A stretch of 64,000 bases of DNA, taken from positions 9,050 through 73,049 of the forward strand of contig JANXDW010000006.1 of NCBI GenBank assembly GCA_025058515.1. Direction: 5' to 3'. Made by a program: the position numbers and the translations under genes. This document shows positions 201-60,462 of this stretch, piece by piece. Numbering within the stretch: position 1 is the stretch's first letter; every line of letters starts with the position of its first letter. The notes beneath the pieces are model-generated. The model searched no databases. It worked only from the letters and a program-made list of their open reading frames with translations, and had not been told where the DNA came from. This stretch comes from Aigarchaeota archaeon. Lineage in GTDB: Archaea; Thermoproteota; Nitrososphaeria_A; Caldarchaeales; Wolframiiraptoraceae.

Positions 201-2231
201 TTGATGATATCATTGAAGAAGATCCACTTATTACCGATAACAATATTAATAGTTCTCACGATAATCCAATCTTATCCACTGTTATATGGTAAGTATACGT
301 GGAATACAGGCTCGATAGAATCTGCATACATAGCTCAGTCTAGAATGCTTTCTGAGAATTTTCCCGTACCTGGATGGAATCCTCTCTGGTATGGTGGACA
401 CCCCTTCAAACTATCTTACTCACCAGGTTTTCTATATGTTGTACAATTAGCTTCAATACTTCTAGGAGTAGATATACCAGAAGCCTATAGAAGAGTCACA
501 GTTCTAACTTTGATTATACTTCCATTGACCATCTACTTCTTCATCTACTCACTATCTCGCTCAGTACTGGCTGGATCTTTATCCAGCATAATCTATCTCT
601 GTTTCCCATCGATTCATAGATTGATTTATGTTTATCCAGATATGCAGCCCTATCCCGACCATATAACACTTATCGGATTATATGGTGAGACACCCCACCT
701 CCTAGGATTATCATTAGCTTTAATCACGGTAACATTATTCTACCATCACGTAGAATCCAGAGAGAAGATCTATCTCATGATCATCGTCTTTATTATCGCA
801 TTCGTTAACATGGTCAATCTGATTGCGGCCGTATCCCTTCTGATATTCCTCTTATCTATAGCCGTTTTATCAGGATGGGGCGCCTTCAAAAAATTCCTAA
901 TTTTATACTTCTTCGGATGGGGACTCTGTTTATTCGTTTATGATTATGAGTATCTAAATGCTCTAACAATCTATCTACAGTTAACAATGAATAAGCAGAC
1001 TCTAACGACTCCATACATAGTTGTAATAATATTGGTTTTATCATCTACATTTGCTTTGGCCAGATTTCTGCAATCTAAAACAGGTATGAAAGCTTTAGCA
1101 GCAACACTGCCACTGGCAGTAGTGTTCTTGCTAGTAGTTGGCTTTAACAGATTTGCCGGTATAGAACTACTACCTCAAGCCATAAGATACAATCCAGAAT
1201 TCGATATCTCATTATATGGATTAGCAGTCTCTCTGTTATTCTTCTCACTTAATAGATTAAGGAGATACAGTGTTGTAGTCATAACAGTATTGCTGGCGGT
1301 CGCCATAATCTACTATGCTGAAGGATTACACTCTGCATGGAACATTTATAGAGTAGGTGACCATGAAATAGAAGATTCCTTAGAGAAGAAGATTGCAGAC
1401 TTTATCAACGAGCTGCCTGGAGATAGGTTCGGTCCACGAGTATATTCTACTGGCTCGATAGCATTCTGGCTAAACGTCTTCAATGGTAAACCACAGGTTA
1501 GAGGAGGATTCGACGAAGTCCCAGGAAGCATAAATCCTATGTGGGCTCATATCTCATATTTTGTTAATAATAGCCCCAACAGTACTCTTAGCATTAAATG
1601 GCTTAAAGCATTCAATGTAAGATACGTTATCGTAGATTTCCCATCAGCCCGCTTACCCTACAAAGACTATAGATATCCAGAAAAGTTTGAGAATAAACTC
1701 AATGTAATAAGAGATACTGATAATGTTAAAGTATATGAAGTTCCATTAGATGATTCTAGACCAATACAGCTTGTAAAGAAGACTGATCATATACCTATCC
1801 TTAGAGATATACAAGATATACAGAGTCTGGAAAGGTATCTTGAATTGATCGAAGATATGAAGTGTGGCCATAGCTTATATTATAATGTAGTTTCTAACAA
1901 CTTAATTGATGTAGAGATTAAGGAGCTTGGAGAAGACTGCTATCTTATCTTCAAAGTCAACTATGATAATGGGTGGAGAGCTTATCTAGATAAAGTAGAG
2001 TTGAAACCTAATCTAATCGGTCCAGGTTTCATCTACTATAACTTGAGTGGGGTTAGAGGAGATGTTAAGATCATGATAAGATATGTGGGTGAGAATGCTC
2101 TCAACTGGGTTTTTAACATGCTATCTATCATCTTTCTGGCGATGACTATATTATACTTCTTCGTGATGGAGAATAGGATCGTTTTAGGTAGAAGTCTTAT
2201 AAGATTCAAAAAATATATTCAGGCCAAGTAG
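201..2231 (+). CDS. Large polytopic membrane protein: about 11-13 predicted TM helices at the N-terminus plus a soluble C-terminal domain; possibly a GT-C-like glycosyltransferase. Paralog of 2875..5468.
   Basis: 676-aa ORF with long hydrophobic N-terminal half and a hydrophilic C-terminal half. The segment SENFPVPGWNPLWYGGHPFKLSYSPGF and PHLLGLSLALITVTLFYHHVESREKIYLMI are clearly paralogous to the downstream ORF pair 2875-5468. No AglB WWDYG motif, so function is left open. Confidence 0.5.
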   Translation: MMISLKKIHLLPITILIVLTIIQSYPLLYGKYTWNTGSIESAYIAQSRMLSENFPVPGWNPLWYGGHPFKLSYSPGFLYVVQLASILLGVDIPEAYRRVTVLTLIILPLTIYFFIYSLSRSVLAGSLSSIIYLCFPSIHRLIYVYPDMQPYPDHITLIGLYGETPHLLGLSLALITVTLFYHHVESREKIYLMIIVFIIAFVNMVNLIAAVSLLIFLLSIAVLSGWGAFKKFLILYFFGWGLCLFVYDYEYLNALTIYLQLTMNKQTLTTPYIVVIILVLSSTFALARFLQSKTGMKALAATLPLAVVFLLVVGFNRFAGIELLPQAIRYNPEFDISLYGLAVSLLFFSLNRLRRYSVVVITVLLAVAIIYYAEGLHSAWNIYRVGDHEIEDSLEKKIADFINELPGDRFGPRVYSTGSIAFWLNVFNGKPQVRGGFDEVPGSINPMWAHISYFVNNSPNSTLSIKWLKAFNVRYVIVDFPSARLPYKDYRYPEKFENKLNVIRDTDNVKVYEVPLDDSRPIQLVKKTDHIPILRDIQDIQSLERYLELIEDMKCGHSLYYNVVSNNLIDVEIKELGEDCYLIFKVNYDNGWRAYLDKVELKPNLIGPGFIYYNLSGVRGDVKIMIRYVGENALNWVFNMLSIIFLAMTILYFFVMENRIVLGRSLIRFKKYIQAK

Positions 2232-2807
2232 GAAGCACTTAACCTTAATCTTTGGAAAAATCTTTAACATCTCTCTTATCTGTCTGCTTGTATAGTTTCT
2301 ATGGAAAGGTTCAGAGACTGGACAAGTCGTAAGGAGATATCTTCTAAAACGCCATACTGGATGTATGCTGGGCACGGTCCCAATAAAAACACCCTCATCT
2401 TTTAAAACTCTGTAAAATTCTCTGATAGCCTTCTCAGGTGATGGTAGATGTTCTAAAACTTCAGTACAGCTTACAATGCTGACACAATTATCTCTAAATG
2501 GTAAATGTTCTAAGTCTGCTTGTATAAGCTCTTTATCTCTTAATCTAGACTGAAGTCTTCTCAGATTCCAAAGATTTAGATCTACTCCTACAACAGGTGG
2601 ATGCATATGGATGGTAATCAATCCAGTGCCGCAGCCTGCATCAAGTATCCAGCTAGACCGTTTAATCTTTTGAAGATTCTTTAAATAAACTATAGCTCTA
2701 AGACGGTGATATATCTTCTCAAGTCTTCTAGGGTCAGTAAGCCAATCATACCGTTCTTCATTTATGTAATAAGACTTGACCTTACGACTCTGTAAAAAAC
2801 GATCCAA
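2184..2807 (-). CDS. Class I SAM-dependent methyltransferase
   Basis: Motif I SWILDAGCGTGLITI (Rossmann GxGxG) followed by an acidic residue and motif-II-like segments. 207 aa. Convergently overlaps the 3' end of ORF 201-2231 by 48 nt. Confidence 0.7.
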   Translation of the reverse strand: MDRFLQSRKVKSYYINEERYDWLTDPRRLEKIYHRLRAIVYLKNLQKIKRSSWILDAGCGTGLITIHMHPPVVGVDLNLWNLRRLQSRLRDKELIQADLEHLPFRDNCVSIVSCTEVLEHLPSPEKAIREFYRVLKDEGVFIGTVPSIHPVWRFRRYLLTTCPVSEPFHRNYTSRQIREMLKIFPKIKVKCFLLGLNIFFESYKTST

Positions 2808-2874: not shown

Positions 2875-5468
2875 ATGGAGATAAGTATTAGAAATCAAAA
2901 TTTAAGATATTCAACAATTATTTTCATACTTATCATATTATCTTACAGTGTGGTGCTGTATTACATATTGCATAATTTTATGGGGTTCCCAGAGATGGCC
3001 TTGGGAGTTGATGCAGTACCTCATTCTGCAAAAATCCACATAATCAAGTCTCTAGGGTTTGAAGGATTCAGATGGTTTCCAACATATTATTTTGGGAATC
3101 CGCATTTTACTTTCTATACACCCTCCACATATATACTTCCTGCAATCGTGACCATTATTCTTGATTTAAACCATCTACAGATCATACAACTTTTAAACTG
3201 GATGTCTTTCTTCTCTGCAATCCTTATTCTAGCTGGGATAATATCATTTCTTTCATACGTAATAAAAGGTAGCAATAAGGTCATGCCAATAATCGGCGCC
3301 AGCCTCTTCCTGACATCTTCTCCAGGTCTAATGGAACCATGGTTATGGGGTGGAAATTTCCAGAATTTCTTACTTTACCAGCTATCCCTTGGAGTCTGCT
3401 ATTAATCGAGAAATGGTTACGAACGAGTAAAAGAATTTATCTGATAGGTTATCTGGTCATCGCCTCTTTCTCTATTATGGGGCATCAAGCAGTTGGTGGA
3501 TTTCTAGTATTTTCAACACTTCTATGGATACTTAGTGATGAGATAAAATGGAAGGTTAAAATGAAGAGAACAGTACTTTTACTGACCTCTTTAGTATGTC
3601 TGACCATTGTATACTTTGTACCATTACTTTACTTCGAGCTGACGACAAAGATACGTCCAGGGATAGTGGAAGATCTACCTTATCCATTTAATATAGGTGA
3701 TTATTTTCCAGTCTTCATGTTGATAGAGATACCTTCACTGCCCATGATCGGTAGTTCTCTACCAGGATCGCCCATACTTCTATTTTTTACATATTATATT
3801 TATTATCTTATAAAGAGAGATCATAAGATCTTTTTGAAGCGAGTAGTCGTTATCTCACTGATTCCAATCTTACTTATTGTACACTTTTTCTTAACTACTC
3901 AAAAAATCGTTCCCTGGATCGCTGGATTTCATCCTGCACGGTATATGGTATTCGTAACAATTTTTTCCTCTATAGTCTTAGGCATAATTTTATCGGATAT
4001 TAGGAGAAAACATCTATATACTTTCCTCATACTGACAATATTAATCATATCTCTTCACTATATTTTTCTTCCATCATATGAACTTCATAAAATGCACTCG
4101 GTAAATCTTTCATCTATAAATGAGTTTAAACTTATCGATGAATTACAGTTATCGATTTTCGGTAATCATTTCCGGATAGGAGGGGTAAAAGATGCCCTAT
4201 TCAATACTATCTCTTTGTTAAAACCGGATTATTACATATCGAGAGGTTATTACGCTCACGGCATATTATATCTTGATTGGCAGTATTGGTTCGAATATAC
4301 TCTATCAAGTCTTCCACATAACCCTAGTAACGAAAATACTTTAATGCATCTTCTCGATTGGGGTTCTATAAGATACTTAGGACTTACCGATTCTGAAGAA
4401 GGCTTTAAAATCGCTGAAGAAAAGTTTAGACCTATTGGTAAACTAGGCGACTTTACGATATTTGAGAACGACTTGGCACCACCTATCTCTGAATTTCTAT
4501 ATGATGGAGCGGTACTGGTTTTCGCCGATTATGAAGGTTACGATGTCTTGTTAAGATCTATTTCCATTAGTAACTATAGTAAACCTGCTCCAATCATCGT
4601 CTGGGCTGAGGGAAGATGTATTGATGATGTTCCAATCGATGTTTTGGAGAAGTTTTCTGTAACAGTTCTCTATAGGTATTGTTATCGAGATAGAGTGAAA
4701 GCTTTCCAGATTCTTGAACACTATGTTTCAGCCGGTGGCAGATTGTTTATAGAGACCATGTCATCTACTGATGAATCTTCTGAGATGCCTTCACCGATAC
4801 CAGTCTCGAAGACCCATAGGGCCATAATAGAAGATGACTGGAACTTTAAGATAGCTGAGCATAGCTTGACAGTCAGTATCTCAAATAATATCTTTTCTCC
4901 ACCAATGTATGATGGTGGACCCTGGGGTGTTAGTTCATCAAATCTAGAATATCTCAGAGATGGGGCTGAGCCTCTCCTGAAATCTAACGGTAGAGTCTTA
5001 GTTGCTTACATTAGATATGGGTATGGAGAGGTTGTCTGGTCTGGGATGAATCTACCATACCATGTTCTAGCATATCAGAATATTGCTGAAGCAGACTTCA
5101 TGAGAAGACTGATAATGTATAATGTGAGTGTTGAGATCGAGCCTGCTCAGATGTATAGAGATTCAGCTACATCTATATTGTTTAAAATACCGTCTAAGGT
5201 CAAAGGCATAATCTTTAGAGAAAGGTATATCTCGAACCTCGTATTTAGCTGGAAGGCTTCAGACTCTAAAGGAGAGCTAGATATTTTTATGATGGGTCCA
5301 GGGTTTAACTATATAGTCATCAAGGATACATATGGGAAAGTTGAAGATATTAGGCTTGTACTAGAGGATGGACCTCTTAGAACCAGCTCGATAATATTAT
5401 CACTCTCTACATTATTCTTACTTGTATACATGTCTCTAGACCATACTAAGAAGGAAAAAAGATCTTAA
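2875..5468 (+). CDS. Large polytopic membrane protein, paralog of 201..2231, encoded as two overlapping ORFs (2875..3405 and 3339..5468). A -1 frameshift at the heptamer A_AAT_TTC (3354..3360) is needed to fuse them into one protein of about 864 aa.
   Basis: Homology to ORF1 runs continuously across the frame change. ORF-A ...EPWLWGGNF followed by ORF-B PEFLTLPAIPWSLLLIEKWLRTSKRIYL matches ORF1 ...GLYGETPHLLGLSLALITVTLFYHHVESREKIYL. Frame B equals frame A minus 1. The slippery heptamer sits exactly at the junction. Confidence 0.5.
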
Positions 5469-5947
5469 CATTTTTACCTCTTTTTTATTTCTAAAAATGT
5501 ATTATCAAATACTGTTAAAGCTTTCACATGGAGGATTATTGACCCAGAATCTGAAGACTGGTCTACAGTAGACGTTGTTATTATAATAGTCTAAAGAATA
5601 GATTCTCTAAAGATGACTTATTGTTCTTCTCAATGAAGAAAGAAGTAGATTTATTTATAGGCTATTCAAATATCGCCTCGGTTGAGGATCTATTAGATAT
5701 AGAAGACTTGGATAAGAGAGAACTCTGTATAAAAATGGTTGGCGTAAGAAGATAGAATATAGTGAAGTCTATAGATTTAAGATAAATCTTCCATTACATC
5801 TAGCATTTCCAGGTCTTCATAGACTTGGTAGAGCACTAGATAGATTAGAACTCAGTCTAATCGAGGTTGAGAAAATATTCAATCTTGAAGATATTATTCT
5901 GAAACATCTAGAGATACAAAGAATACATGCTCGGAAAAGTAGACTAT

Positions 5948-6751
5948 TCAACGAACTCTAATCTTATCATGAACATGAGTGGTTTCTTTTGGAAGTGGTA
6001 GATCTGTAAAGATCTCTTTCAAATGATTTGTGTATCTGCTAGATGAACTGAAGATCCTTGAGATATCTATCCCTGATGATGTTTCAGGTATAGTAGGGAC
6101 CGTTACGTAGGCTCCACCAAAATATTCTTTAAACTCTTTCTCGAACTTCTTAACAGTCGAGCTGGTTTGATCGTAAAAGTTGATTACAGGTTTAATAGAA
6201 CATTTAAAATGTGAATAGATATTCTCCATTCTATCTTTGAAGATCTTAAATTCGTAAAGGCTCGGCCTCAGAACATATATCACAAAATCCGAGATATAGC
6301 TTACTACTGCTAAAGTATAGAACATCCACGGTGGAGTATCAATTACTACATAGTCTAGAGGTTCATCTCTGATAATCCATCTCTCACGTTCTAAAGCCTT
6401 AACAATTCTCTTATCTTTTTCTGCATCTAGAATTTCCATCCTTCTTCTAGCACCTTCAGAAGTGTTTGCATAGATTGCATAAAGGCTCTGAGATGGTAGA
6501 CCAGCGGTGTCGCTTACGTCTATCGAAGCTTCTTCTATCGAGGCTTCACCCGTTATCCAATCATTAGACCATTTTGCAACATGTCTCTCTATAGGGATAA
6601 GATGTTCAAGCACAGGATTTAAGAAGTCTGCCTCGACATAGAGTGTCCTACCTCTTCGAGCTAAATTGTATGCAAGTGTTAAAGCTACTGATGTAGCTCC
6701 AGAGCCACCTCTAGAATGTTGTACAGAGAAAACCACCGGCAAAATGATCAT
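5948..6751 (-). CDS. ParA/MinD-like P-loop protein (SIMIBI class) with degenerate Walker A, probably ATPase-dead
   Basis: N-terminal SRGGSGATSVALTLAYNLARRGRTLYVEADF aligns to the ParA/MinD KGGVGKTT...VLLVDAD pattern, but both the signature Lys and the P-loop Lys are replaced (R and A). A later VVIDTPPW motif is equivalent to the ParA Walker B region. Confidence 0.5.
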   Translation of the reverse strand: MIILPVVFSVQHSRGGSGATSVALTLAYNLARRGRTLYVEADFLNPVLEHLIPIERHVAKWSNDWITGEASIEEASIDVSDTAGLPSQSLYAIYANTSEGARRRMEILDAEKDKRIVKALERERWIIRDEPLDYVVIDTPPWMFYTLAVVSYISDFVIYVLRPSLYEFKIFKDRMENIYSHFKCSIKPVINFYDQTSSTVKKFEKEFKEYFGGAYVTVPTIPETSSGIDISRIFSSSSRYTNHLKEIFTDLPLPKETTHVHDKIRVR

Positions 6752-7359
6752 GTATATGAAGTAACTCTAGTTTAAAAATCTAAAAATGGTAGATTATCAT
6801 TTTTTACAAAATCTTAAATCATTTATGTAATAATGTTGATTAAACTAACGGTCTACGAAGGTGTGAGTATCTCTCTACTTGTTTCTTCACGATTCGACAG
6901 TTTAACGAGCGTTCTCCATCTTCTTATGATTTAAAAAGTCTATTGATGAAAGTAGGAATTTTGCTGATCAATTATCTAATGATTATGTTGAGTTCTAGGA
7001 ATGAATATGGAGAAAGCATAATCTTCTATCTTCAAGCTTCTCATTGATTTTTACTATTTCTAGTGACGTTAATCACTTTTAGATATTAAGATTAGCAGAA
7101 TCTCTATATCTTTCAAGATAATTTTTCTACAACTTTCATGATAATGAAAAAAGTTATTCTTAAGAGATATTATCTATGTTTTTGATTATAAGGTCTTCTA
7201 TAATAAATAGATCTCCTCTACACTTTTAATGAAATCGTATATTCTTTGCTATTATAGGTCTTCAGTGAAGATAACTTTTATAAATGAGGTTAACAAATTT
7301 ATAAAAAGTTCTTTTAATTTGGCAAAAATGTTATATAATACTAGAGGAGATTATGTTAT

Positions 7360-38849: not shown

Positions 38850-40325
38850 ATGATTTTCAAGGATTTTATAAGGTTAAGATTGGCTGGAAAGAGCGTATTT
38901 GATAAGATCTGGGAATCTCATATTATCTATGAGAAAGAAGATGGTGAAGCATTGATTTATGTAGATAGACATCTAACACATGAGGTAACTTCCCCTATGG
39001 CTTTTGAAGGTCTTAGAGAGAAGAATAGAAAAGTTAGGAGACCTGATTTAACTTTTGCAGTAATGGATCATAATGTTCCAACAAGCGATAGACTTAAACC
39101 CATCATAGATGAGACTTCAGCTAAGCAGATTGCAGCATTAGAAAAGAATTCTAAAGAATTCAGTATAACCTTATTTGACCTATATAGTCCATATCAAGGT
39201 ATTGTGCACGTAATAGGTCCTGAGCTAGGTTTAACCATTCCAGGCATAACTTTAGTATGTGGAGATAGTCATACATCTACGCATGGTGCATTGGGAGCTT
39301 TAGCATTCGGTATAGGGACTAGTGAAGTAGAACATGTCTTCGCAACTCAAACATTATGGTTGAAGAAACCTAAGAAGATGTTGATAAAACTTGAAGGTAA
39401 ACTAGATGAGGTTGTAACTGCTAAAGATGCTGTATTATGGATTATTAGGAATATCGGGGTAGGTGGTGGAATAGGATACATACTAGAATATGATGGGAGA
39501 GTTGTTAGAGAGATGGATGTAGAGGCACGTATGACCTTGTGCAATATGGCTATAGAAGCTGGAGCGAGAACAGCGATAATCTCTCCAGATGAAAAAGTAT
39601 TCAACTATGTTAAAGGTAGACCGTATGCTCCAGCTGAAGAAGAATGGGATGAAGCTTTAAGATCATGGAAGGAGCTTGTAAGCGATCCAGATGCACAGTA
39701 CCATAAAACGATTACATTTAGTTTAGATAAACTTGAACCTCAAGTATCTTGGGGTACGAATCCATCTATGACCGTTGGAATAAGTGAAGAAGTCCCAGAC
39801 CCCGATGACTACGACGACCCAAAAGAGAGAGAAGTTGTTGAAAGAGCTTTGAGATATATGGGGTTAAAGCCTAGAATGAAGATGACAGACGTGAAGATAG
39901 ATGTAGTCTTCATAGGTTCATGTACAAATGGAAGATTATCAGATATTATAGATGCTGCTAGAGTTTTAAAAGGTAGAAAAATCTCACACAACGTAAGAGC
40001 ATTAATCGTTCCAGGTTCTCAGCTTGTTAAGAGGATGGCGGAGAGGATGGGTCTCCACAGAATATTTATAGATGCTGGATTTGAATGGAAGAATTCTGGA
40101 TGTAGTATGTGCATCGCAATGAATGAAGATAAACTTAGACCTGGTGAGAGATGTGCAAGTACATCTAATAGGAATTTTGAGAATAGGCAAGGTCCTGGTG
40201 GTAGAACTCACCTAGTTAGCCCGATTATGGCTGCTGCAGCAGCTGTATATGGAAGATTCGTAGATATTAGAGAACTTGACCTACCTACTAGAGAAGAGGT
40301 GGTGGAATATGCTAGAACCCATTAA
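38850..40325 (+). CDS. leuC: Aconitase-family dehydratase large subunit (3-isopropylmalate dehydratase LeuC or homoaconitase type)
   Basis: VCGDSHTSTHGALGALAFGIGTSE; FIGSCTNGRLSD; GCSMCIAMN (the three cluster Cys). 491 aa. Confidence 0.8.
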   Translation: MIFKDFIRLRLAGKSVFDKIWESHIIYEKEDGEALIYVDRHLTHEVTSPMAFEGLREKNRKVRRPDLTFAVMDHNVPTSDRLKPIIDETSAKQIAALEKNSKEFSITLFDLYSPYQGIVHVIGPELGLTIPGITLVCGDSHTSTHGALGALAFGIGTSEVEHVFATQTLWLKKPKKMLIKLEGKLDEVVTAKDAVLWIIRNIGVGGGIGYILEYDGRVVREMDVEARMTLCNMAIEAGARTAIISPDEKVFNYVKGRPYAPAEEEWDEALRSWKELVSDPDAQYHKTITFSLDKLEPQVSWGTNPSMTVGISEEVPDPDDYDDPKEREVVERALRYMGLKPRMKMTDVKIDVVFIGSCTNGRLSDIIDAARVLKGRKISHNVRALIVPGSQLVKRMAERMGLHRIFIDAGFEWKNSGCSMCIAMNEDKLRPGERCASTSNRNFENRQGPGGRTHLVSPIMAAAAAVYGRFVDIRELDLPTREEVVEYARTH

Positions 40326-40932
40326 AGTTATTGAAGGCAAAGCTGCACCATTTAGAGTTGAGAATGTAGATACAGACCAGATAATCCCTGCAGAGTTCTT
40401 GAAGATAATTGATAAGAAGGGCTTAGGTAGGTACTGCTTCTACCGTTGGAGATATAGTGAAGACGGTAGACTAAGAGAAGATTTTATACTAAATAATCCA
40501 AAGTATAGAGATGCTACTATACTGGTTGCAAGTAGAAACTTCGGTATAGGTTCATCTAGAGAAAATGCGGTCTGGGCTCTTCAAGACCTTGGGATAAGAT
40601 GTATCATCGCCCCCTCTTTTGGAGACATCTTTTACGTAAACTCTATCAAGAATATGCTCTTATGTATAAAGCTACCAGAAGAAAAAGTTAGGATGCTTCA
40701 AGAAGAAGCTGAGAAAGATATACTGATATTGAGAATAGATTTAGAAGAGAATTCTATAAGATTTAGAGATAGAGTAATCTACTTTGAACTAGATGAAGCT
40801 ATTAGAGAGAGGTTCCTTAAAGGATTGGATGAAGTGGAGCTATCATTAGCTTATGAAGAAAAAATAAGGAGATATGAAGAAGGTATGAAGAGTTTTCTTC
40901 TTCCTAAGCCTAGAAGATTTATACACGATTAG
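40309..40932 (+). CDS. leuD: Aconitase-family dehydratase small subunit (LeuD-type)
   Basis: MLEPIKVIEGKAAPF..NVDTDQIIPAEFLK...NFGIGSSRENAVWAL. The internal ATG at 40309 (17-nt overlap with the leuC end) is preferred over the ORF-track start at 40276. Confidence 0.7.
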   Translation: MLEPIKVIEGKAAPFRVENVDTDQIIPAEFLKIIDKKGLGRYCFYRWRYSEDGRLREDFILNNPKYRDATILVASRNFGIGSSRENAVWALQDLGIRCIIAPSFGDIFYVNSIKNMLLCIKLPEEKVRMLQEEAEKDILILRIDLEENSIRFRDRVIYFELDEAIRERFLKGLDEVELSLAYEEKIRRYEEGMKSFLLPKPRRFIHD

Positions 40933-60372: not shown

Positions 60373-60462
60373 GGGCCGGTAGTCTAGAGGTTATGACGCC
60401 GCCCTCACAGAATTTCTTCGAGGAGACGGCGGAGGACGTGGGTTCGAATCCCACCCGGCCCA
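60373..60462 (+). tRNA. tRNA-Val (anticodon CAC) with a 17-nt intron at the canonical 37/38 position; CCA not encoded
   Basis: Acceptor GGGCCGG/CCGGCCC, D-arm GTCT..TGAC, anticodon stem CCGCC/GGCGG with loop CTCACA-[intron GAATTTCTTCGAGGAGA]-C, T-arm GTGGG TTCGAAT CCCAC, discriminator A. An A/T-rich box ACATATAT lies about 25-30 nt upstream. Confidence 0.8.

Follow-up and report, generated by a model that had tools for sequence, protein, structure and literature searches.

A split PF10131 gene in Caldarchaeales with a slippery heptamer at its frame break, probably a young frameshift allele

The window, a stretch of 64,000 nucleotides, stems from a hot-spring Caldarchaeales population (Nitrososphaerota, formerly 'Aigarchaeota') known from metagenome-assembled genomes (MAGs). 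Within a gene neighbourhood of envelope glycosylation, it contains two ORFs on the same strand, ORF A and ORF B (Table 1), which overlap by 67 nt, with ORF B in the -1 frame relative to ORF A. ORF A consists of 162 native codons, ending with F162 (3358..3360), and then runs on out of frame for 14 codons to a stop at 3403..3405; its 0-frame tail past the junction reads QNFLLYQLSLGVCY. The native part of ORF B begins at P163 (3360..3362), and its codons 1-7 (MVMGWKF) come from the stretch that frame A reads as PWLWGGNF, here read in frame B. Public annotations start ORF B at a methionine at 3477, giving a protein of 663 aa. At the junction lies the sequence AAATTTC, whose first base (3354) is the third base of a frame-A codon, and GGA AAT TTC reads G-N-F; the break thus maps, as the earlier reading of the sequence alone (the sequence-only reading) had placed it, to an A_AAT_TTC heptamer in the frame of ORF A. 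A frame change joining the two ORFs must fall in the stretch in which both frames are open, and homology narrows the point to 3355..3362. Reading frame A up to 3360 and restarting at 3360 yields an 864-aa product containing WLWGGNFPEFLTLPAIPW, with a predicted junction peptide GGNFPEFLTLPAIPW, also given as ...EPWLWGGNFPEFLTLPAIPWSLLLIEK.

Table 1. Features of the split-gene locus, in window coordinates.
Feature	Coordinates	Strand	Remarks
ORF A	2875..3405	+	176 aa; N-terminal fragment of the split gene
ORF B	3339..5468	+	709 aa; C-terminal fragment of the split gene
A_AAT_TTC heptamer and one-base deletion site	3354..3360	+	from comparison with the sister locus L001
Both-frames-open stretch	3279..3405	+	an ORF-joining frame change must fall here
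Region 3' of the heptamer	3361..3480	+	tested for stimulatory RNA structure; no structure found
676-aa membrane protein	201..2231	+	'paralog' of the sequence-only reading; at most a distant relative

Because a Pfam PF10131 match and the ortholog alignments both cross the junction, ORF A and ORF B are, on sequence comparison, two pieces of one gene, which agrees with the earlier proposal that both stem from a single ancestral gene for a membrane protein. The PF10131 match covers residues 78-393 of the fused protein, spanning the junction at residue 162 (32.1 bits against a cut-off of 26.4), and the orthologs P0005-P0009 carry precomputed PF10131 assignments. Five full-length orthologs (849-875 aa) and one partial sequence align over the junction without a gap, with the invariant residues P155, W156, G159, G160, N161, E164, P169, I171 and P172 flanking it on both sides; the N-termini of the full-length orthologs align with ORF A, including the invariant D46, P49, H50 and K53 and the motif YYFGNPHF. 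The 864-aa product of a -1 shift at the heptamer is gap-free against the full-length orthologs within the invariant motif PW..GGN..E....P.IP, and here, too, the sequence-only reading holds—the shift restores both the orthologous sequence and its spacing.

The homology argument it had used was not confirmed. The two ORFs had been described as collinear with the protein encoded further upstream, taken as a paralog (Table 1); BLASTP returned only weak, C-terminal fragments (best E 0.008), and alignment of this protein to the ortholog profile with hhalign covered 42 C-terminal columns only (E 0.0065, probability 5.8%). At the junction itself, YGETPHLLGL (residue 161 of the upstream protein) compared with WGGNFPEFLTL (residue 158) scores 39, against shuffles with a mean of 33.3 and a standard deviation of 5.3, 50 of 300 of which reach 39. 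This similarity not being significant, paralog-based support was set aside and the true orthologs were used instead.

Judged from its sequence, the gene product is a multi-pass membrane protein of ~864 aa belonging to Pfam PF10131 ('PTPS_related'), with many N-terminal transmembrane helices and a large C-terminal soluble domain, and structure modelling suggests that it probably adopts a GT-C-type glycosyltransferase fold. GT-C enzymes make up all of the top 22 PDB Foldseek matches of the predicted structure and 27 of the top 33; these matches are weak (E 1.5e-3 to 0.3, TM 0.24-0.30) and derive from a low-confidence model (mean pLDDT 52.7) built on an alignment of just 7 sequences, making them a weak pointer to GT-C only. 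A distant sequence match, P0010, carries PF09586, which we take to be the YfhO family. The protein thus resembles GT-C membrane glycosyltransferases (STT3/PglB/AglB, AftD, EmbA-C, ALG9/12 and YfhO) in its PF10131 match, fold matches and architecture, and differs from them in the weakness of those fold matches and in that a PDB sequence search found no sequence match to a solved structure.

At the break, the gene is read in one frame in all six orthologous proteins and in the DNA of two orthologous loci. The proteins (P0002, P0004, P0005, P0006, P0008 and the partial P0009) read WL.GGN[Y/T/S][P/A]E. The nearest relative, L001, with 84% nucleotide identity, carries GGA AAC TAT CCA GAA TTT, and its pairwise alignment with the window (GGA AAT T-T CCA) contains exactly one 1-nt gap at the site, at window position 3359. 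L005, the one locus with orthologous DNA in the metagenome scan, reads GGA GGA AAT TCT GCA GAG; the genome scan gave two loci, only L001 covering the site, and neither scan found relatives at 84%-99.7% identity. The heptamer is absent from L001, L005 and the six orthologous proteins. Frame break and heptamer are not conserved in diverged orthologs and are common only to assemblies at least 99.7% identical; the orthologs are uninterrupted ORFs (N-Y/T/S-P/A-E at the site, AAC TAT CCA in the nearest relative), the very outcome that the sequence-only reading had named as refuting the programmed -1 frameshifting it proposed. Relative to L001, one base is lost (GGA AAC TAT CCA to GGA AAT T-T CCA), and this loss created the heptamer; the slippery motif found there probably arose as a side effect of the deletion rather than evolving as a recoding signal. 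L001 has itself suffered an independent break in the same gene, a 14-nt insertion composed of a 13-nt tandem duplication (TTTATATATTATA) and 1 nt, which suggests that this clade can do without the gene or has inactivated it repeatedly.

Besides the window, the junction-spanning sequence GGTGGAAATTTCCAGAA is carried by L003 (GCA_033582315.1), L004 (Logan SRR15826900) and L006 (GCA_026413845.1); the C-terminus of the window's ORF B equals P0012/MCS7125451.1, a protein for which no contig was found. The four carrier assemblies are 99.7-99.9% identical, with 6-15 SNPs between pairs over 6-9 kb, and the junction is identical in the three separately deposited MAGs and the independent Logan assembly. 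Read as found, with the deletion, the junction is GGAAATTTCCAG; versions with one extra base would be GGAAATTATCC or GGAAATTTTCC. The lesion recurs in four assemblies that differ in their SNPs, which makes the sequencing indel offered earlier as an alternative unlikely; by comparison of the assemblies, the one-base deletion is real and not an assembly error. The other alternative offered, a recent frameshift, is favoured by the data.

Eight SNPs fall within the gene among the four carriers, five synonymous and three non-synonymous in the fused frames (four and two, respectively, in ORF B), where a neutral expectation would be ~72-78% non-synonymous (P for at most 3 of 8, 0.017-0.041, from this tiny sample). 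The pattern argues weakly against full relaxation of selection. A second disabling lesion was not seen in the 2.6 kb in any carrier, a search of low power at a divergence of at most 0.3%. The split gene has 3.1 SNPs per kb, compared with 13 per kb in 5500..5960, a stretch under no apparent constraint (nominal p 0.012); four of the six SNPs of that stretch cluster in L004, and counting them as one event gives a p of 0.22, so that the contrast was set aside as evidence. The stretch 5500..5960 also differs by two 1-nt gaps from an intact 153-aa ORF in L001 that has no Pfam hit, and the differences between window and L001 by codon position (21/29/34) lack a third-position bias; its reading as local gene decay was set aside, as it may be no gene. 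Elsewhere in the window, a further candidate split (38850..40325 / 40276..40932) proved not to be a frameshift: its two ORFs are the large and the small subunit of an aconitase-family dehydratase, a normal pair.

How much weight the heptamer can bear depends on its expected frequency. In-frame X_XXY_YYZ heptamers occupy 0.37% of codons (65 in 53 kb of window ORFs, or 1.2 per kb); ORF A by itself contains four. In a simulation of all single-base deletions in 39 window genes, a heptamer arose across the deletion in 0.95% of cases, no more than one codon away in 1.5% and anywhere in the open overlap in 5.7%. Since ~1% of random one-base deletions make a heptamer at the deletion, the coincidence is about 1 in 100 per lesion—mildly suggestive, and short of decisive. 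The downstream stem-loop check revealed no stimulatory structure: the RNA fold of 3361..3440 has a minimum free energy of -10.3 kcal/mol (z +0.31), and a fold this good also occurs in 121 of 200 shuffles; that of 3354..3480 is no better than shuffled (z +1.88), pseudoknots being outside the model of the folding tool. No rare or hungry codon was found at the site; CAG, the next 0-frame codon, occurs at 9.0 per 1000 and CAA at 9.2, and both AAT and TTC are frequently used. Stimulation of -1 frameshifting in bacteria needs a Shine-Dalgarno (SD)-like element ~10-14 nt upstream, and none lies at that distance; the sole G-rich element, GGGGTG (3347..3352), lies just 1 nt before the heptamer; it codes for the conserved W-G-G and occurs in L001 as well, where the frame is not shifted at this site. 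Transcriptional slippage was rejected by reasoning, since known slippage tracts are much longer than runs such as A3 and T3. With single-frame orthologs, no stimulatory structure and common flanking codons, programmed -1 frameshifting is left unsupported.

We consider it fairly likely that the locus represents a frameshift allele of recent origin, either inactive or with residual expression only, in which the heptamer is incidental. On this reading, one base was lost from the codon after the invariant Asn161 (ancestral AAY TAT CCA to AAT TTC CA), which split the gene into the 176-aa N-terminal ORF and a C-terminal ORF of 709 aa in the -1 frame. The A_AAT_TTC pattern arose from this deletion; it is no evolved, conserved recoding signal and lacks a stimulatory element. 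The allele would most likely be loss-of-function or strongly hypomorphic, the bare heptamer at most letting a small fraction of ribosomes slip to give full-length protein. It is presumably young, because dN/dS against the sister is still 0.22-0.28 in all three segments (0.17 in the neighbouring methyltransferase), a ratio that mostly reflects pre-lesion history and cannot date the lesion. Young archaeal pseudogenes with frameshifts in A/T-rich tracts resembling slippery sequences have been reported (van Passel et al. 2007, as cited in PMC8211752), and the locus is like them in its single-base indel, its A/T-rich context and its intact orthologs, as well as in the two overlapping ORFs annotated as hypothetical proteins and the second, independent lesion in the sister lineage. 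Unlike ordinary young pseudogenes, it has no sign of further decay, and the few SNPs it carries tend to be synonymous, so the split gene would be either very young or still partly functional.

Compensatory ('corrective') -1 frameshifting, in which slips on A_AAU_UUC (tRNA-Asn from AAU to AAA, tRNA-Phe from UUC to UUU) supply a useful 864-aa enzyme and the allele persists under selection at low expression, is in our view unlikely. The model for such an event is the fucA1 alpha-L-fucosidase gene of Sulfolobus (Saccharolobus) solfataricus (Cobucci-Ponzano et al. 2006, PMC1616953; reviewed in PMC8211752): both are archaeal cellular genes with 0/-1 ORFs in short overlap, an X_XXY_YYZ heptamer at the junction, a strain- or lineage-specific lesion with full-length orthologs elsewhere, and a -1 product that reproduces the ortholog sequence. 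The precedent, invoked by the sequence-only reading, is the one proven cellular case in Archaea (~10% in vitro; PMC8211752) and is itself strain-specific. Corrective slippage would also account for a heptamer in the correct phase exactly at the lesion (~1% by chance), for the exact restoration of the ortholog spacing N-x-P-E, for the synonymous bias of the carrier SNPs (p 0.02-0.04) and for the lack of further lesions, and a class of indel-correcting frameshifts is already recognised (PMC5009743). Against it, the SNPs are very few, the RNA downstream has no predicted structure and weak hairpins would be expected to melt at hot-spring temperatures, no rare or hungry codon is at hand, and GGGGTG sits just 1 nt upstream, simply codes for W-G-G and recurs in the unshifted L001. 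In fucA1, A_AAA_AAT is flanked by rare CAC codons in tandem and by a putative stem-loop, and the whole context is kept in full-length relatives, the A-run differing by one base (PMC8211752); here, by contrast, no relative has the heptamer, the nearest one carries the non-slippery AAC TAT CCA, and the case is known from sequence alone. Bare heptamers in E. coli, moreover, reach 2-10 times a background of 0.055%, well under 1% (PMC4066793).

That the deletion persists because it created the slippery heptamer, with unstimulated slippage in this thermophilic archaeon giving a low, selected level of a full-length envelope glycosyltransferase, strikes us as doubtful; given the independent break in the sister lineage, the gene may have been tuned down and not lost, possibly owing to viral pressure on surface glycans. 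With canonical -1 cassettes (dnaX, IS3/IS911 transposases, phage tail-assembly chaperones and retroviral gag-pol), the locus shares the X_XXY_YYZ form of the heptamer, and none of their conserved sites, downstream hairpin or pseudoknot, spaced upstream SD-like element or two functional products was seen here. The Rous sarcoma virus site A_AAU_UUA involves the same P-site slip, from AAU to AAA.

Separate translation of ORF A and ORF B, the latter from ATG 3339 or 3345 or a downstream Met, with the halves assembling or ORF B functional alone, appears improbable. Coupled re-initiation is conceivable where these in-frame ATGs overlap the end of ORF A, the synonymous SNP bias resides mainly in ORF B, and the two already figure as separate proteins in public annotations. 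The break, however, falls inside the family's most conserved loop motif and cuts D46/P49/H50/K53 and YYFGNPHF off from the rest, and GT-C enzymes have catalytic residues in an N-terminal loop; none of the orthologs examined is naturally split at this point, and no clear ribosome-binding motif precedes 3339. Least probable by far is a sequencing or assembly artefact, with a true genome one base longer and an intact gene: all sequences are metagenome assemblies, judged as assembled, and the site is a short A3T3 run, but three-base runs are not known as an error hotspot in short-read data, and the carriers sharing the junction differ by SNPs.

Counting against a young, inactive allele are the ~1% heptamer coincidence, the synonymous lean of the SNPs, the SNP-density contrast, the lack of a second lesion and the fucA1 precedent. 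Low-level compensatory slippage or separate use of ORF B is possible because the carrier SNPs lean synonymous, and slippage also because fucA1 is strain-specific with full-length orthologs elsewhere.

If the locus is just a young frameshift allele, the finding is mainly an annotation matter: at least three public MAGs list as two 'hypothetical proteins' what should be annotated as a single frameshifted PF10131 gene. Finding a canonical heptamer where a frame breaks says little by itself, since ~1% of random deletions in this AT-rich genome make one. If corrective slippage were true, this would be only the second documented cellular archaeal -1 frameshift after fucA1, caught soon after its origin—a recoding site born from an indel.

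The putative slippery site AAATTTC (3354..3360) falls where two same-strand ORFs, A and B, overlap by 67 nt, and the sequence-only reading had recorded it accurately: it conforms to the X_XXY_YYZ pattern and has the phase that ORF A requires, frame A at 3352..3362 running GGA AAT TTC CA. Translation in frame A as far as 3360, resumed at that same base, yields an 864-aa protein containing ...EPWLWGGNFPEFLTLPAIPW..., and 3279..3405 is the only stretch in which both frames are open. Homology across the junction shows that ORF A and ORF B are one gene. A Pfam PF10131 (PTPS_related membrane protein) match covers fused residues 78-393, spanning the junction at residue 162 (32.1 bits against a curated cut-off of 26.4), and a search through 5.8 billion proteins retrieved five orthologs of full length (P0002, P0004, P0005, P0006 and P0008; 849-875 aa, 43-50% identity, 95-98% coverage) together with partial orthologs; every one comes from a metagenome bin of Nitrososphaerota/Caldarchaeales ('Aigarchaeota'). 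In the ortholog alignment, the fused product is gap-free and the junction lies inside the family's most conserved loop motif, with P155, W156, G159, G160, N161, E164, P169, I171 and P172 invariant. The earlier one-gene conclusion was right on these grounds, but its own basis, collinearity with a 'paralog' at 201..2231, is weak and statistically unsupported at the junction: BLASTP against that protein returned fragments only, hhalign aligned only 42 C-terminal columns (E 0.0065), and the junction match YGETPHLLGL / WGGNFPEFLTL was equalled by 50 of 300 shuffles.

All orthologs pass the site in a single frame, as GGN-[Y/T/S]-[P/A]-E. The gene-wide alignment with L001, the closest relative, contains exactly one 1-nt gap at the junction, so the frame break is the loss of one base from the codon that follows Asn161. 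The relatives lack the heptamer at this site; it arose through the deletion. The programmed -1 site proposed from the sequence is thus contradicted by single-ORF orthologs lacking the heptamer, the very observation that the proposal had named as refuting it. We consider it probable that the loss of a single base from a PF10131/GT-C-like membrane protein gene is real and recent and became fixed in one Caldarchaeales population, with the heptamer as a signal-less, unconserved by-product.

Features of the split gene, its relatives and the surrounding window
Feature	Position	Strand	Details
ORF A	2875..3405	+	176 aa
ORF B	3339..5468	+	709 aa; -1 frame relative to ORF A
Class I methyltransferase	2184..2807		neighbour
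Exosortase/archaeosortase-family (PF09721) gene	1-61 and upstream; L003:1-585; L004:1-588	- (window)	window starts inside
Junction, window			TGG GGT GGA AAT TT- CCA GAA TTT; two frames
Junction, L001 (Caldarchaeales DT_Bin_20)			TGG GGT GGA AAC TAT CCA GAA TTT; one frame; 84-85% nt identity to window
Junction, L005 (orthologous locus)			GGA GGA AAT TCT GCA GAG; one frame; 48% aa identity to window
L001 14-nt insertion	L001:3895-3908 (JBCNVN010000009.1)		corresponds to window ~3786
L001 broken ortholog ORFs	2992..3960 and 3957..5594
Aconitase-family dehydratase, large subunit	38850-40325	+	Pfam Aconitase
Aconitase-family dehydratase, small subunit	40276-40932	+	Pfam Aconitase_C
tRNA	60373-60462	+	90 nt; Rfam, 61.7 bits; missed by ARAGORN

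In the sister lineage L001, the same gene is broken independently, about 430 nt downstream of the break in the window, by an insertion in an AT-rich tract, made up of a tandemly duplicated TTTATATATTATA (13 nt) and one further base. Between the window and L001, dN/dS is 0.275, 0.236 and 0.217 for three segments of the gene (0.167 for the neighbouring methyltransferase) and substitutions in the gene show a strong third-codon-position bias (108/69/193), from which both lesions appear to be recent on the scale of the 15% divergence.

The signals that a programmed site should carry were also sought. At 37 C, the 80 nt downstream of the heptamer have a folding energy of -10.3 kcal/mol (z +0.31), and the 127-nt stretch is less structured than shuffled sequence (z +1.88). 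No rare codons occur at the heptamer (AAT 21.8, TTC 20.5 per 1000), nor is the next 0-frame codon, CAG, rare (9.0 per 1000 versus 9.2 for CAA). A G-rich GGGGTG, 1 nt upstream, codes for the conserved W-G-G and is also present in the unshifted L001. In E. coli, bare heptamers exceed a background of about 0.055% by a factor of only 2-10 (PMC4066793). In the window, which has 37.8% G+C, in-frame heptamers occur at 0.37% of codons (65 in 53 kb). Four of them are AAATTTC, and ORF A by itself has four heptamers. When every single-base deletion was simulated in 39 genes of the window, 0.95% placed an in-frame heptamer across the deleted position, 1.5% placed one no more than a codon away, and 5.7% produced one at some point in the open overlap. 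This 1-in-100 coincidence is only mildly suggestive, because the site was picked by a reader seeking exactly such a site.

Four near-identical assemblies carry the lesion: the window (the C-terminus of its ORF B matches P0012, MCS7125451.1, exactly), L003 (GCA_033582315.1), L004 (Logan assembly of SRR15826900) and L006 (GCA_026413845.1). Over 6-9 kb, any two of them are separated by 6-15 SNPs and a small number of indels, and every public annotation shows the gene as two hypothetical proteins. Five of the eight SNPs in the split gene are synonymous and three non-synonymous in the fused frames, against a neutral expectation of about 72-78% non-synonymous (P(<=3 of 8) = 0.017-0.041), which hints weakly that at least ORF B is still under constraint. 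SNP density is 3.1 per kb in the split gene versus 13 per kb in the adjacent 5500..5960, a contrast that is not robust because it depends on four clustered SNPs from a single assembly. Low-level compensatory frameshifting, an ORF B translated separately, or chance would each fit the SNP pattern.

'Corrective' frameshifting of indels is a recognised class (PMC5009743), and compensatory slippage producing a useful full-length protein, with which the synonymous lean agrees, is conceivable but unlikely. Its precedent, fucA1 of S. solfataricus, likewise is broken in a strain-specific way, has orthologs of full length and is expressed through -1 frameshifting; however, the slippery run, rare codons and stem-loop of fucA1 are conserved in its relatives (PMC8211752), and the comparison cuts both ways. 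Less likely again is a functional split gene, for which the SNPs would reflect ORF B being translated separately. An artefact is highly improbable, since four assemblies with differing SNPs share the same junction, GGTGGAAATTTCCAGAA; as far as the assemblies show, the lesion is real.

Other variation was seen among the carriers. An intergenic A-run at 7302 (AAATTTAT-AAAAAG) differs by a single A between L003 and L006 on one side and the window and L004 on the other, so one-base indels segregate in this population. Within ORF 201..2231, an in-frame 3-nt (GAA) indel at 1515-1517 sets L004 and L006 apart from the window and L003 and, with nearby SNPs at 1496 and 1521, indicates that the population contains two haplotype groups. 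The region 5500-5960 (+) is homologous to an intact 153-aa ORF of L001 (5698..6159), which has no Pfam match; it contains two 1-nt gaps (near 5555 and 5730), no long ORF and the highest SNP density among the four assemblies (6 in 460 nt), and its differences from L001 show no preference for third positions (21/29/34). The region must be a gene that has decayed or else an unconstrained spacer. Farther along the window, the tRNA is probably an intron-containing archaeal one, and a frameshift between the aconitase-family ORFs, which overlap by 50 nt in different frames, was rejected: Pfam assigns them to separate subunits, a normal two-gene arrangement.

The split gene neighbours the methyltransferase and another large membrane protein; with the PF09721 gene and a GT2 glycosyltransferase further upstream of it in L004, the group looks like a cell-envelope glycosylation cluster. 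An AlphaFold model of the fused protein, built on a shallow alignment, was poor (pLDDT 52.7) and its PDB fold matches were weak; the top 22, and 27 of the top 33, were GT-C glycosyltransferases, including STT3/PglB, AftD, Emb, ALG9/12 and AftA. On this model, the gene may be read as a GT-C-like envelope glycosylation enzyme. The split gene as such is a feature of an ordinary kind.
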